Source: a virus. From it: DNA of 64,000 nt. The stretch lies in IMG/VR virus record IMGVR_UViG_3300021599_002733; one strand, 5' to 3'. Of the stretch, positions 33,756-53,536 are shown piece by piece. The notes beneath the pieces are model-generated. The model worked only from the letters and a program-made list of their open reading frames with translations. It did no database searches and was not told where the DNA came from. Numbering within the stretch: position 1 is the first letter of the stretch; each line of letters opens with the position of its first letter. Position numbers and translations under genes: made by a program.

Positions 33756-34546
33756 ATGTTATTTAATAAATTTTTTAAACCATTACTTTTAATTGAACCC
33801 AACGCTTTATCTTTGGTTGGAGTTTTCTTTACATTGGTTGGTTTATTCCCCAATGTATAATTTCCTTTCCCTCCATCCAAGTTCTTTTTTCCTTCTTTTA
33901 ACTTTGGTAACCATTCACGTTCAAATTCAATACGTGCTGCCATTAAGTCTGCCTGGTGTAAGATAAAAGGTAATGAAGTTCTTGGTTTTTGCTCGGGCAT
34001 AAAGTTCTTTAAATACTTGTTATTTGCCTCATCATATAAACCATCGTGAGTCTGGATAGCAATCATCTCATTAAATGTATATTGGATACCATGAGATTGT
34101 AAAAGGAATAACCCTCTATCTGGAACAGATGAAAATGGTACTTTAGTATTAAACATATAATCCTCACCTAACTTATCTTTACGCCATTGGTCTGTCTGGG
34201 GTATATAGGAATCCTCGGATTCATCACCCATTTTACCTAAATCATGGTTTAGTGCTGAGAATATCAATTCTTCAGTAGTAAAAGTAGACATATCACATCC
34301 TTCATCTTCCCATAATGTAGCTTGCTTGATAGCACATCGAATAACGCGTAAAACATGCTCTACATACCCTCCAGGGAAAGCATTATGGTATTCTTTCTTA
34401 TGCGCAGCAGGCATTAATATTAAACGATCAGCATATTTTTCATAAAATGCTAATAGTTTTTCTTTACGTGGTTCGGAAATATATTCATTAATATACCCCA
34501 TTAATTCATCCCAATTCTCTTGGATTTGTTCGGCTGTTAGATTCAT
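33752..34546 (-). CDS. HD-domain phosphohydrolase
   Basis: H..FPGGYVEH; HDLGK; HDG; HQAD. Confidence 0.85.
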   Translation of the reverse strand: MNLTAEQIQENWDELMGYINEYISEPRKEKLLAFYEKYADRLILMPAAHKKEYHNAFPGGYVEHVLRVIRCAIKQATLWEDEGCDMSTFTTEELIFSALNHDLGKMGDESEDSYIPQTDQWRKDKLGEDYMFNTKVPFSSVPDRGLFLLQSHGIQYTFNEMIAIQTHDGLYDEANNKYLKNFMPEQKPRTSLPFILHQADLMAARIEFEREWLPKLKEGKKNLDGGKGNYTLGNKPTNVKKTPTKDKALGSIKSNGLKNLLNNI

Positions 34547-37175: not shown

Positions 37176-37237
37176 GTGTTTTATCTTTAATTATGGTTTT
37201 AATATACGAACTTACCTCCATAAACCATATTCCATAG

Positions 37238-37306
37238 CCACCGAAAGCCCGGTTGCTCGGGCTCCAAGTGGAAGATAAACGGTTATGAAGCGTTGTCTTT
37301 TAATTG
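37238..37306 (-). ncRNA. Candidate antisense sRNA (UUCAUAACCGUUUAUCUU seed plus GC hairpin)
   Basis: Reverse complement of the array start motif; followed by the AGCCCG-agcaac-CGGGCT hairpin. Confidence 0.4.
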
Positions 37307-37409
37307 TGGTCAGGACAGGATTCGAACCTGTAACCCCTTATTTATTTGAGTGATTTCTAGAGGAGCTCTCTCACTTGGGGAGTGCGTCTACCAATTCCGC
37401 CACCTGACC
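37307..37409 (-). ncRNA. tRNA-like RNA (Leu-type D arm, intact acceptor stem and T arm) with non-canonical, enlarged anticodon/variable region
   Basis: GGTCAGG/CCTGACC-A acceptor; TGGCGGAATTGGTAGACGC; ACAGG-TTCGAAT-CCTGT; 103 nt. Confidence 0.75.
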
Positions 37410-37425
37410 ATATGTTGGGGGCTAT

Positions 37426-37797
37426 TTATTCTATACCACCATTGGCAGCTATTAATTCTACCAATTCAATGGATTCTGCCTCCACTTTAGCTTTAGCCGG
37501 GCGTCCACGCTTAACGGCTCCACCATTGGCTGCTGCTTTGGCTGCTAGTTCCGCTAATCGGATCTGTCTTACACTATCGGCTTTAACTGGTCGTCCAAGC
37601 TTAAGTTCACCATTGGCTTTTTTAGCCGCTAGTTCAGCTAGCCTTTGTTGTCTAACACTATCTGGATTAACTGGACGGCCTTGCTTACCCTCACCCGCTG
37701 CTTTTTTGGCTGCTAGTTCTGCCAAACGGATTTGACGAGCACTGTTTGAATTAACTGGACGACCTAATTTTGCTGTTTCTACATTTACATTTTTCAT
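37426..37797 (-). CDS. AT-hook-like (GRP) tandem-repeat protein
   Basis: Three repeats of about 28 aa (K.GRPV..DSVRQ.RLAELAAK) and a terminal KRGRP. Confidence 0.7.
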   Translation of the reverse strand: MKNVNVETAKLGRPVNSNSARQIRLAELAAKKAAGEGKQGRPVNPDSVRQQRLAELAAKKANGELKLGRPVKADSVRQIRLAELAAKAAANGGAVKRGRPAKAKVEAESIELVELIAANGGIE

Positions 37798-37817
37798 AAC
37801 CTTAATTTTTTGCTTTT

Positions 37818-38012
37818 TTAATTATACTTTAATATACGAAATTGATTTATTATCTCTAAGTCCTTATTGTCTAATTGAATAAATTTGGTTTTGGTTTCTC
37901 CCTCAAACATAACTATCCAACGTTTATTACTACCGTCTTCCCTTAAGATACTACTTACTTTTTTCAAAAACTTAATTTCAATTAAGCTAATAACATTTTT
38001 TAAATCAACCAT
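37818..38012 (-). CDS. Hypothetical protein
   Basis: ORF track; its 3' end runs through the promoter repeat. Confidence 0.55.
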   Translation of the reverse strand: MVDLKNVISLIEIKFLKKVSSILREDGSNKRWIVMFEGETKTKFIQLDNKDLEIINQFRILKYN

Positions 38013-38647: not shown

Positions 38648-38871
38648 AACGTTTTATCTTTTTAATTATGGTTCAATATACGAACTTTATTTATTATCAC
38701 TAAGTCCTGAAATAAAATCCAAACATTTCTGTTTTACCTTAAAACTTACCTTACACCCATCCAGGTGAAAAAAGTAACCAATCTCATTATCAAACATTAC
38801 CAAAATTCCCTTATACACAAATGTATTATTCATAACCTTTATCTTTAAATATAATTCAATATACGAACTAT

Positions 38872-39066: not shown

Positions 39067-39237
39067 TTAATTAAAAGCCACTTGGTACAACACTAAAGTG
39101 GCTGCGTTCACGTCAGGTATTTCACCTAAATCTTTATTCTGAAATTTTACAATGTTGATCAGGTCTCGTCCTGTGGTTTCGCCTGTTAAAGCATGTTTCA
39201 CTGCTGATTTGTAATCTTTTTTAACTTTTGTTTTCAT
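39067..39237 (-). CDS. Hypothetical protein (56 aa, not in track)
   Basis: MKTKVKKDYKSAVKHAL...; canonical leader. Confidence 0.6.
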   Translation of the reverse strand: MKTKVKKDYKSAVKHALTGETTGRDLINIVKFQNKDLGEIPDVNAATLVLYQVAFN

Positions 39238-39311
39238 AACCTTTATCTTTAAATATGTCTTAATATACGAAAGTAGCTTTAATTAGCTACTTCCTTTTAT
39301 TATTATTTTAT

Positions 39312-39568: not shown

Positions 39569-39925
39569 TTAATTAAGCTCTTCCTTTTTAGTAAATGTTT
39601 CAATAATTTCAATTTCAAATACCTCATAATTATGATGTTTTAATTGAGTTGTGAATTTAGGACCTGGTATATTTCTTCTTTTACCATCTTCATTTAATAT
39701 TAATTGAGAACGGTCAATAGTTGTAATATAATTTTCTAGTCCTAGATTTTCAAATGATTTAACTTGTTTAAAACGTTTTTTCTTTAAACCTGATAGGTCC
39801 CCCACTTGAAATTCTTTAAAATACCCCATAGAGATATTATGTTTATAATGATTATTTATTTCTTTAATACCTAATTCATTTAAACCATATAATTTAACCT
39901 CAATCTCTTTTTTCACTTTTCTCAT
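39569..39925 (-). CDS. Hypothetical protein
   Basis: Likely start MRKVKK after the GGTT leader. Confidence 0.6.
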   Translation of the reverse strand: MRKVKKEIEVKLYGLNELGIKEINNHYKHNISMGYFKEFQVGDLSGLKKKRFKQVKSFENLGLENYITTIDRSQLILNEDGKRRNIPGPKFTTQLKHHNYEVFEIEIIETFTKKEELN

Positions 39926-39966
39926 AACCTTTATCTTTAAATATGTCTCAATATACAAAAAGAGGC

Positions 39967-40284
39967 TTATTTAGCCTCTTCCTTTTTAGGTCTTCCTCTT
40001 TTAACTAAACCTAACTCTCTCTTACTCTCTAATTCCTTTAACCTAATCTGTCTTACACTATCTTCTTTAATAGGACGTCCTCTTCTAAGTTCTCCATTAT
40101 TTCTTTTTAATTCTAACTCTTTCAAACGTTTTTGTCTTTCACTATCTTCTTTTACAGGACGTCCTAACTTTAACTCTCCATTTTTTCTCTTACTTTCTAA
40201 CTCTTTAATCCTTTGTTGTCTTACACTGTTTTCATTAACAGGACGTCCTAATTTTTTTACTTCAATTACTTCTACTTTTTTCAT
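39967..40284 (-). CDS. AT-hook-like (GRP) tandem-repeat protein, paralog of 37426-37797
   Basis: KLGRPV.EDS.RQ.RLKELE x3 and KRGRPKK. Confidence 0.7.
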   Translation of the reverse strand: MKKVEVIEVKKLGRPVNENSVRQQRIKELESKRKNGELKLGRPVKEDSERQKRLKELELKRNNGELRRGRPIKEDSVRQIRLKELESKRELGLVKRGRPKKEEAK

Positions 40285-42702: not shown

Positions 42703-42903
42703 CTATTCCTCAATTGATTCTATAAATTTGGTTTGAGTGAGTATTTCTGTTTCCCATTCCATACTTTCTTCTACTTCTTCTCCTTCACCACGTTCTTCTC
42801 CAAACATGATTATTTGCTCTGCTTCTTCTTTTGAATTAGCTTCAACAATATATTGTATTGTTTTTGTTGATTTTACTTCTGTTGTGATTCTAAATACTTT
42901 CAT
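42703..42903 (-). CDS. Small acidic protein (EANS.EEA), paralog of 43589-43795
   Basis: ORF track. Confidence 0.6.
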   Translation of the reverse strand: MKVFRITTEVKSTKTIQYIVEANSKEEAEQIIMFGEERGEGEEVEESMEWETEILTQTKFIESIEE

Positions 42904-42953
42904 AACCTTTATCTTTATTTATACTTTAATATACGAAATTTTAATTAAAAAAC

Positions 42954-52636: not shown

Positions 52637-52683
52637 ATTCTAAATATACGAATTTTCTTTTAAATATTCTATTCCTTTTATAA

Positions 52684-52731
52684 AGACAACAATGGAGCAG
52701 CTGGCACTGCTCCTTTAGTTTGTTGTTGTCT
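52684..52731. terminator. Long intergenic hairpin
   Basis: AGACAACAA..GGAGCAG-ctggca-CTGCTCC..TTGTTGTCT. Confidence 0.5.
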
Positions 52732-52735
52732 GCTT

Positions 52736-53536
52736 TTAATTTGCAAACTCAAGCGCCAATTCAAACAATTCTTTGTTTACTTTCAAGTCTTGATTGAAGT
52801 TTTTAATTCTTCGCGCTTTGCGGCTTTTGTTACCTGCATTATAGTTGAAATCACCTTCAATGATTTTTTCTTGTATTACATTGAATATTGACCATAGATC
52901 AGTTCCTTTATCCTCTGGTCGAGTTGGCTCAAGCAATAGCTTAGCATCAATTGTAATTCGTGTCATTTCCTCCTCTGTAAAGCGAGTAGCTAGAGCACGT
53001 GTTGCTAGCTCAACTGCTTGCTCTTCATCCAATTGAGTTTGTTTCATTTTATTCATTGATTCAACTGTTAGAGGTAAACGCTCAACCATCTCTTTGATTT
53101 TTGCTTGCAATTCCTCAAATGTATAGCCCATATGACGCAATTTTACATTTTCGAATTCTGTAGTGGAGATAACCAATCCATTTTCACATACCAAACGAAA
53201 CAAACCAGCTGTGAATGTAAATGAATTTTTTCCGTCATGGCTATTTGTCAATAGAATTTGTGGAAACACTGTATCACCATCAGAGCCATTGATTACAATA
53301 TCATTGTTTCTAAACACTACTAGGTGTTTTTGGAAGCCAACACCTTTTCTTGCTTTGACTTGTTTAGCATCTACAACTCCCCATCCAAGTTGAGCCATAT
53401 CATCAATCACTTGTGATGTTGGAATGTGTGTATAAGCAGATGATACATTTGTTGCTGCTGTAGCTGTAAATACACTTGGTGCTGCATTTTTAATGTCGCT
53501 TTTTGACAAGAATTCTGAATTTTCTAAATTTAACAT
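52736..53536 (-). CDS. DUF932/DUF945 family protein
   Basis: APSVF; Y..IPT; LTNSHDG; GLFRLVCENG; LW..FNVIQE. Confidence 0.9.
   Translation of the reverse strand: MLNLENSEFLSKSDIKNAAPSVFTATAATNVSSAYTHIPTSQVIDDMAQLGWGVVDAKQVKARKGVGFQKHLVVFRNNDIVINGSDGDTVFPQILLTNSHDGKNSFTFTAGLFRLVCENGLVISTTEFENVKLRHMGYTFEELQAKIKEMVERLPLTVESMNKMKQTQLDEEQAVELATRALATRFTEEEMTRITIDAKLLLEPTRPEDKGTDLWSIFNVIQEKIIEGDFNYNAGNKSRKARRIKNFNQDLKVNKELFELALEFAN

Follow-up and report, generated by a model that had tools for sequence, protein, structure and literature searches.

A tRNA-like element and a conserved anti-leader hairpin in an uncultured lake-water phage: a candidate antisense regulator of early-gene starts

Organization of the Locus

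The stretch of DNA analyzed here (the window) is the 64,000-nucleotide sequence of the IMG/VR virus record IMGVR_UViG_3300021599_002733, an uncultured lake-water phage, in which the minus strand carries every gene. The present work concerns a short interval in the 3' untranslated region of a cistron encoding a 123-aa repeat protein, where three modules follow one another on that strand (Table 1): an anticodon-less transfer RNA (tRNA)-like element, a hairpin (H1) in which the loop and 3' arm together read as the reverse complement of the early genes' leader and start motif, and a GC-rich, terminator-like hairpin (H2). An earlier note on this stretch, drawn from its letters, had proposed that processing of a tRNA mimic releases an antisense RNA that covers the start codons of many genes at once, an interpretation which the present analysis supports in part. 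We tentatively read the interval as the 3' end of an early transcription unit, carrying three RNA modules on the gene strand, whose trailer may mask many early starts.

Table 1. Features of the interval and its flanks, in the direction of transcription
Feature	Position	Strand	Basis
Upstream cistron, 123-aa protein with four KxGRPxxxSxRQxRLAELxxK repeats	37426..37797	-	Open reading frame (ORF) and translation, 1481 homologues
Anticodon-less tRNA-Leu-like element, 103 nt	37307..37409	-	Rfam RF00005 (44.7 bits), fold
Linker opening the 3' trailer, with CAA directly after the discriminator A	37300..37306	-	Sequence, matches genuine tRNA flanks
Hairpin H1 (anti-leader)	37272..37299	-	Minimum-free-energy fold of the trailer, covariation, sole plus-strand motif copy
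Loop of H1, CUUCAUAAC; complement of GUUAUGAAG, the start codon with its flanks	37282..37290	-	Invariant alignment columns
Hairpin H2, GC-rich, terminator-like	37238..37271	-	Fold, covariation, unique in the window
CGTATATT box of the next promoter cassette; end of the unit	37201..37208	-	One of the 40 boxes on this strand

The surroundings of the interval are built from approximately 40 small-gene cassettes, in which a promoter box, CGTATATT, is followed by the leader and start AAGATAAAGGTTATGAA. The box, which is likely a phage-group-specific early promoter, occurs in 40 copies, all on the minus strand between 37201 and 57400, each preceded by GGA and often by a hairpin-forming spacer; the canonical order of a cassette is GGA, spacer hairpin, TTCGTATATT, GTATAAtTAAAgATAAAGGTTATGAA. 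The leader motif AAGATAAAGGTTATGAA has 32 matches with at most three mismatches, exclusively on the minus strand, against a chance expectation of 1.27. Exact copies are located at 38829-38845, 39233-39249 and 42899-42915, and a copy with one mismatch at 39921-39937; the motif search thereby returns the genes at 38833, 39237, 42903 and 39925 that had been named as the best partners of the antisense tail. Across the start regions of the window, and in the related contigs L044, L045 and L046, the early genes share the start consensus AAAAA(A/G)GUUAUGAA, which presumably resembles the binding consensus of the T4 repressor RegA. The same consensus is complementary to positions 33-38 of a CAU anticodon loop.

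Within the interval, the minus strand reads tRNA-like element, short linker, CGCUUCAUAACCGUUUAUCUUCCAC and hairpin AGCCCG/CGGGCU. Between the linker and the GC-rich hairpin lies CGCUUCAUAACCGUUUAUCUUCC, which, apart from one additional G, reads as the leader motif in reverse complement. A fuzzy search of the 64 kb, allowing insertions and deletions and up to three edits, returned a single plus-strand copy of the motif, at 37272-37289, whose one inserted base corresponds to the bulged G, and no plus-strand promoter box was found in the window. Because one plus-strand copy stands against 32 minus-strand copies, with 1.3 expected by chance, the inverted motif is real and not a chance match; its unique orientation and its lack of a plus-strand promoter had both been pointed out before and hold. 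A second H1-like site at 33960-33998 lies within a coding region, has two mismatches and forms no hairpin, and was dismissed as a coincidence.

Structure and Covariation of the Hairpins

H1 is formed by two stems, AAGA/UCUU and AACG/CGUU, which enclose the 9-nt loop. The earlier note had described these letters as an antisense tail followed by a GC hairpin. Both sequences are confirmed, with two corrections: the tail is not single-stranded, since it constitutes the loop and the 3' arm of H1, and the GC hairpin is longer than described, being followed by a weak U run.

The relatives used for comparison were gathered through the upstream repeat protein, so that the sample is unbiased with regard to the RNA, and 12 distinct relatives make up the alignment (A1) on which the covariation test is based. 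The four loop-adjacent pairs of H1 are 100% paired; pair 15-29 occurs as CG or AU, and pair 16-28 as CG, GC or UA. The loop CUUCAUAAC is invariant across all 12 sequences. The observed covariation score was reached by none of 500 shuffles, and sliding the partner columns abolishes the pairing. Furthermore, the 3' flank AUCUU is kept even where the 5' arm is coding and unable to pair. The conservation of the seed, which had been named as a check on the antisense proposal, is thus found as an invariant loop on a covarying stem. H2 covaries as well, and its G-U pairs would be mismatches on the other strand; since the G-U pairs and U tracts are valid on the minus strand only, these structures belong to the gene strand.

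In the window, H2 has a strong stem and a weak U run, with just UUUCGG inside its 3' arm, and the terminator scan did not report it. In several relatives, the gene next after H2 lacks a promoter box. All nine isolated trailers taken from different phages (9/9) fold as an open-loop H1 followed by H2, with an unpaired probability of ~1 for CAU. The trailer is therefore built like a base-pairing small RNA (sRNA), with a conserved and accessible seed complementary to the start regions of its targets. H2 also resembles the canonical cassette spacer (GGA, hairpin, TTTCG), with the box replaced by GTGG, which hints that parts of cassettes were put together to make the entire module.

A conserved hairpin at the end of a transcript can equally be thought of as a structural or protein-binding 3'-end element acting in processing, stability or termination, the leader complementarity being then a relic of an inverted duplication. 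This explanation is a serious one, which we nonetheless hold to be rather unlikely. Pure structure would not keep a 9-nt loop invariant while the stem covaries, nor the AUCUU flank where the coding 5' arm cannot pair, and we know of no candidate protein that would bind H1. Its remaining points, on either side, arise from the relatives and from the energetics described below.

The strand assignment bears on another alternative, namely that an inverted cassette is active on the plus strand, with an antisense promoter and leader directed into the tRNA-like element and the upstream gene, or with a micro-ORF. An inverted GTATA(A/T)TT box-like sequence is indeed found between H1 and H2 in most relatives, and the plus strand carries a perfect leader and ATG. 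However, the window has lost the box and L040 retains a degenerate form of it, and the GGA-N22 upstream element is absent. The ORF starting from ATG 37285 comprises 22 codons here, 20 in L035 and 5 in L033, L040 and L044, and the products are unrelated beyond MK; translation of this ORF from a plus-strand transcript had been named as an outcome that would speak against an antisense RNA, and the ORF is not conserved. With the G-U pairs and U tracts of H2 and of the second-locus terminators (see below) fitting the minus strand only, and all genes and 40/40 boxes lying on one strand, plus-strand activity appears improbable.

The loop itself invites comparison with a tRNA-Met or tRNA-fMet anticodon stem-loop, for which H1 might serve as a decoy toward an anticodon-loop nuclease or a CAU-reading enzyme or ribosomal site. 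Its inner part, UUCAUAA, includes U33, CAU, A37 and A38 and belongs to the invariant loop, and H1 adjoins tRNA-like elements and, in the record G002, also a real tRNA-Met. The fit is poor in other respects: the loop has 9 nt instead of 7, or is closed by a C-C mismatch, and the AU-rich stem of 4-6 bp lacks the three G-C pairs of the initiator tRNA. Moreover, a CAU-loop appearance is inevitable for any RNA antisense to an AUG context, and the conserved leader-matching 3' flank would be superfluous for a decoy. Such mimicry is accordingly regarded as very improbable.

State of the Locus in Relatives

At this site the relatives display three states. Contigs L035-L038 and L041-L043 encode the long C-terminal form of the repeat protein, followed by a spacer of ~20 nt and the tail, with no tRNA-like element; compared with L035-L043, the 103-nt tRNA-like element of the window is a clean indel. 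L033, L040 and L044 encode the short form, whose reading frame enters the tail and ends at a UAA inside it. A tRNA-like element occupies the same spot in L039, where the insert differs and the element has a promoter box to itself, and in L045, where it is divergent and called by ARAGORN as an odd tRNA-Lys. These three states indicate that the tail is older and more constant at this site than the tRNA-like element. The more distant L032, which uses another promoter and leader system and has no CGTATATT boxes, contains neither tRNA-like element nor tail. Where the two modules do adjoin, the linker junction is conserved (L171, L045, L174 and all second-locus units). The possibility that the tail is the ancestral 3' end of the upstream ORF, into which a tRNA-like element was recently inserted, was rejected, since the long C-terminal form is widespread and the unit exists at a second locus.

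Recurrence at a Second Locus and Origin of the Module

Three whole records (G001, G002 and G003) contain two H1 copies each, the second of which follows a gene of the DUF932-like type. The second-locus unit opens with a tRNA-like element, whose insert measures 54, 27 or 13 nt, and continues with the linker CAAAA, H1, and a strong stem with a U tract. Its H1 loop is identical to CUUCAUAAC of the first locus, and its terminators have stems of 11-12 bp followed by 6-8 U; both the T stems and the terminator stems covary in the recurring units. A pattern scan located this arrangement at ten loci. When the loop was left unspecified in the search, all of the genuine second-locus units (8/8) carried CUUCAUAAC. 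With both loci counted, a tRNA-like element stands directly before H1 in 15 units on 13 contigs; no unit was found in L197 or L198, two further relatives of the DUF932 gene. The conservation of tRNA mimic, anti-leader tail and terminal hairpin in related phages, which the earlier note had named as a check, is therefore borne out at two loci. The tie that the note had assumed between tail and mimic is looser: it is realized in the 15 units, but the tail is independently conserved, in seven lineages without the mimic.

The antisense match extends further in most relatives than in the window. There, the sequence running from the H1 loop up to H2 matches, in reverse complement, the stretch of GTATAATT through ATGAAG, approximately 33 nt; about 10 nt of it are missing from the window. 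The copy at the second locus mirrors in the same way another leader variant, AAAGAAACGGTTATGA, which occurs as a forward leader in L044. Since the match covers the whole cassette stretch, and likewise for the second variant, the module looks like an inverted duplication of the target cassette. In the relatives, the inverted similarity even runs into the GTATA(A/T)TT part of the cassette, and H2 is like the cassette spacer hairpin, both of which point to a duplication at the DNA level and are compatible with a purely structural role for H1. That H1 occurs without a tRNA-like element, even overlapping a stop codon, and that the element is dispensable in relatives, can be read in the same sense. 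Against this, two paralogous loci have kept complementarity to two leader variants.

The least credible of the explanations sees in the complementarity a relic without function or a product of chance. The core of the motif, ATAA...TTAT, is palindromic, with 8 of 17 positions equal to their own reverse complement, which would favor a fortuitous match. The inverted copy is, however, the only one on the plus strand within three edits in 64 kb, compared with 32 on the other strand; it is conserved, with stem covariation, next to a protein that is just 65-95% identical, and it is duplicated at the second locus. The covariation test and the loop invariance likewise disfavor this explanation.

The closest cultured phage, Flavobacterium phage immuto, shares 46% identity in the DUF932 protein and has the same promoter box, in 10 copies on one strand only, which places a bench system within reach. 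Some start contexts of immuto are identical as well. Close DNA relatives among cultured phages were not found.

Several further elements were observed around the second locus. At the corresponding site of the window (52680-52740, minus strand) lies a long hairpin, AGACAACAA...TTGTTGTCT, enclosing GGAGCAG...CTGCTCC. A conserved element of ~60 nt is present on the minus strand between the DUF932-like gene and the tRNA-like element in L188 (2730-2830), L190, L192, L193 and L187. It starts with CGTCGCAAGTAGAACCGACGG, ends with TTCGGGG, contains the nested or pseudoknot-like pairings CGUCG/CGACG, AGUAG/CUACU and GGC/GCC, and has no Rfam match; it could be a self-cleaving or processing RNA. In G002, an RNA-like stretch of ~170 nt lies between the tRNA-Met and H1 (L186, 200-430, minus strand). 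Its start, GGGGCTGAAATGC, is similar to the 5' end of transfer-messenger RNA (tmRNA), it ends in a T arm and CCACCCCTCA directly before H1, and it is called neither by ARAGORN nor by Rfam.

The tRNA-Like Element and Its Family

The tRNA-like element exceeds the Rfam gathering threshold clearly (44.7 versus 29 bits). It retains a 7-bp acceptor stem, the discriminator A, the D arm, and the T arm with a GTTCGAATC-type loop, all with posteriors near 1. At the position of the anticodon arm, the Rfam alignment shows a non-conserved insert of 42 nt where 13 nt are expected, and ARAGORN makes no call on the element. An identical 3' flank is seen next to the genuine tRNAs of the window, with CAA after the discriminator and no encoded CCA.

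The first 26 nt of the element have exact matches in 31 viral contigs, all of which keep the 3' end (T arm, acceptor strand and A). These loci represent 25 distinct elements of 87-143 nt, whose middle parts differ wholly in sequence and length. The 5' half also matches tRNA-Leu genes of cultured phages. Among 185,579 prokaryotic species, represented by one genome each, the 26-mer has a single match; with 31 viral loci on the other side, the scaffold is essentially viral. The sole prokaryotic match (L195, 3305-3460), which is likewise anticodon-less with an insert of ~110 nt, is situated on a contig of a metagenome-assembled genome labeled as Saccharibacteria, and this contig may be a phage contig binned with it.

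In close relatives, the middle part, which is dispensable in this family, is reduced to as little as 13 nt or the D arm is lost, and the acceptor and T stems remain paired and covarying. The reduction of some members to an acceptor/T-arm minihelix suggests that selection acts on processing or on recognition of the end. As only the parts recognized by RNase P, RNase Z and the CCA-adding enzyme are kept, the element is probably a processing handle for RNase P and RNase Z, and not a decoder, as far as its sequence indicates. In several other phage groups, an element of this family lies 15-25 nt upstream of a gene start.

Other identities were considered and set aside. With introns allowed, ARAGORN assigns discordant anticodons and intron sites to 24 members of the family and does not call the copy of the window at all; these discordant assignments show that the members are not intron-bearing tRNAs. 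No tmRNA was found by ARAGORN in the window or in the 25 family members, and the insert is only 42 nt long. YrlA, or bacterial Y RNA, and other tRNA mimics in Rfam were excluded, because only tRNA matches were returned (E ≤10 for the window, ≤1 for the relatives); the ends of the element lie in the acceptor stem, unlike the permuted topology of Y RNA. As a guide, finally, the insert has no apparent target: the 52-nt middle part reaches a complementarity to the window of at most 11 nt, which is the chance level.

In two other phage groups, a conserved structured region follows the tRNA-like element (L020, 11620-11720; L023, 10565-10665), with compensatory changes such as CTGTAG..CTACAG versus CTCTGTGG..CTACGGAG. 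The region may be another unannotated RNA.

Pairing with Early Start Regions

The pairing capacity of the trailer was evaluated with a 23-nt seed against 38 promoter-proximal start regions. The mean duplex energy is -12.4 kcal/mol, far stronger than that of shuffled controls (-5.9 ± 0.8 kcal/mol) and reached by none of 500 shuffled seeds, as the proposal of an antisense RNA had led one to expect. Duplexes of -15 kcal/mol or below are formed with 10 of the 38 start regions, compared with 0.09 expected from the shuffles and 1.5% of random windows. When both partners are allowed to fold, the mean cofold gain is -10.5 kcal/mol versus -5.1 ± 1.3 kcal/mol for the controls; the best value, -17.5 kcal/mol, is obtained for the gene at 42903, with H2 left intact. 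Across the transcript as a whole the pairing is not selective: in a scan of the whole minus-strand transcript, the counts equal those of shuffled seeds. This lack of selectivity speaks for the structural explanation of H1.

Metatranscriptome Contigs

Twenty public sequencing runs, mostly from lakes and other fresh water, hold the window or part of it; in one freshwater metatranscriptome, 90% of the sampled words of the window occur. One of the contigs of this RNA library spans 37228-37926 without any difference; the contigs are unstranded, and DNA carry-over is possible. Contigs of other members of the tRNA-like family, with other inserts, have several-fold higher depth, again in unstranded assemblies.

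Proposed Mechanism

The anatomy, conservation and covariation of the modules, the recurrence of the unit and its favorable pairing energies are compatible with the following course of events, in which processing, the release of a discrete small RNA and repression are predicted steps. A cut on the 3' side of the tRNA-like element would free a trailer of ~70 nt, composed of H1 and H2. The exposed H1 loop could then initiate base pairing to GUUAUGAAG at the starts of many early genes. From the loop, pairing could spread into the leader, which would occlude initiation in a host that uses unstructured leaders free of a Shine-Dalgarno (SD) sequence. In Flavobacterium, initiation ignores SD sequences and is tuned by leader structure and by key upstream bases (PMC6847099); masking of the leader should consequently work in such a host.

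Several observations weigh against masking of early starts by the trailer. The H1 of the window is weak (4+4 bp), and its antisense stretch has been cut down by deletion. H1 and H2 occur in 7 lineages without any tRNA-like element, directly after the upstream gene, and where the short protein form is encoded, its stop codon UAA falls in the loop, so that ribosomes would unwind H1. The phage of the window has no second-locus copy, a plain hairpin following its DUF932-like gene, and immuto has neither the tRNA-like nor the H1 module despite sharing the promoter box, which marks the module as accessory. Over the full minus-strand transcript, the selectivity of the seed does not exceed that of shuffled seeds, and sites other than starts reach equal or better duplex energies; energy alone does not single out the start regions. 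One and the same start consensus is found in every relative and the loop does not vary, so that no covariation between seed and target is available. The putative sRNA would arise from the same early promoters as some 40 target classes, which raises a concern about stoichiometry. Finally, the metatranscriptome contigs over the interval reveal neither strand, nor ends, nor level.

Taking these points together with those for and against the alternatives, we rank masking by the trailer ahead of a purely structural or protein-binding role of H1, while holding it with caution. The fuller account is more doubtful still: a ~70-nt anti-leader riboregulator, bringing about a self-limiting shut-off of the approximately 40 cassettes, would have arisen by inverted duplication and be present in two copies tuned to two leader variants. 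We consider this combination, as a whole, rather unlikely.

The upstream cistron deserves separate mention. No Pfam domain was detected in its protein family, which counts 1481 metagenome homologues. The protein occurs with two alternative C-termini, one of which is formed by reading into H1; the long form ends in GGIE, and the short form ends in ETAS, with its stop within the H1 loop. The window encodes two paralogous proteins made of ~28-aa GRP-containing repeats, this one (37426-37797) and another at 39967-40284.

Comparison with Known Systems

The C4 RNA of phages is said to block translation by pairing near the ribosome-binding region, a finding attributed to Hartmann et al. in 1995. In phages P1 and P7, the maturation of this antisense RNA is carried out by RNase P (PMC4919922). 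C4 and the trailer are alike in being phage-encoded antisense RNAs cut from a longer transcript by RNase P, the cleavage being a prediction in the present case. C4 differs in that it acts on one operon (ant/icd) and is itself what RNase P cuts; here, a distinct tRNA-like handle, a 3' trailer as the active RNA and the leader of dozens of genes as the target are predicted.

A trailer with a regulatory role is known from E. coli, where 3'ETS-leuZ, derived from the glyW-cysT-leuZ tRNA operon, is a base-pairing regulator (10.1101/2021.04.25.441314). It resembles the phage trailer as a regulatory RNA from the 3' spacer of a tRNA transcript that ends in the terminator of its operon. The E. coli RNA, however, is freed by RNase E and, together with Hfq, acts as a sponge for RyhB and RybB, whereas the phage trailer follows a non-decoding tRNA-like element and would target the start regions of mRNAs. 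The phylum in which the phage trailer occurs is not known to have classical Hfq-dependent sRNAs.

As for the handle, the tRNA-like structures of MALAT1/mascRNA and MEN-beta and the t-elements of plant mitochondria are cut by RNase P and RNase Z and define the ends of RNAs (PMC4919922). They are, like the phage element, non-decoding tRNA-shaped modules within longer transcripts, which matches the role proposed for it; they differ in being eukaryotic or organellar, and in the phage element cleavage is predicted. Neither such a family in bacterial phages nor an anti-leader trailer turned up in full-text searches on tRNA-like RNAs of phages or in a preprint from 2026 that deals with tRNA mimics of bacteria.

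A functional parallel among phage proteins exists in T4, where the repressor RegA and the endonuclease RegB shut down many early mRNAs by way of a feature common to their starts; the RegA consensus from systematic evolution of ligands by exponential enrichment (SELEX) contains GUUAUG. These agents are proteins, in contrast to the RNA proposed here.

Conclusions

The element described here represents a freshwater branch, in Bacteroidota phages, of a large unannotated family of anticodon-less tRNA-like RNAs. H1 with its loop CUUCAUAAC, together with the terminator hairpin, constitutes a compact and conserved RNA motif that can be searched for and tested. Should the trailer indeed pair with the shared leader, it would represent the first case of one-to-many, RNA-based shut-off for the early program of a phage, a task for which T4 uses RegA and RegB. 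In that case, the locus would likewise offer a natural instance of a tRNA-shaped "cut here" signal that delivers a regulatory RNA in bacteria.

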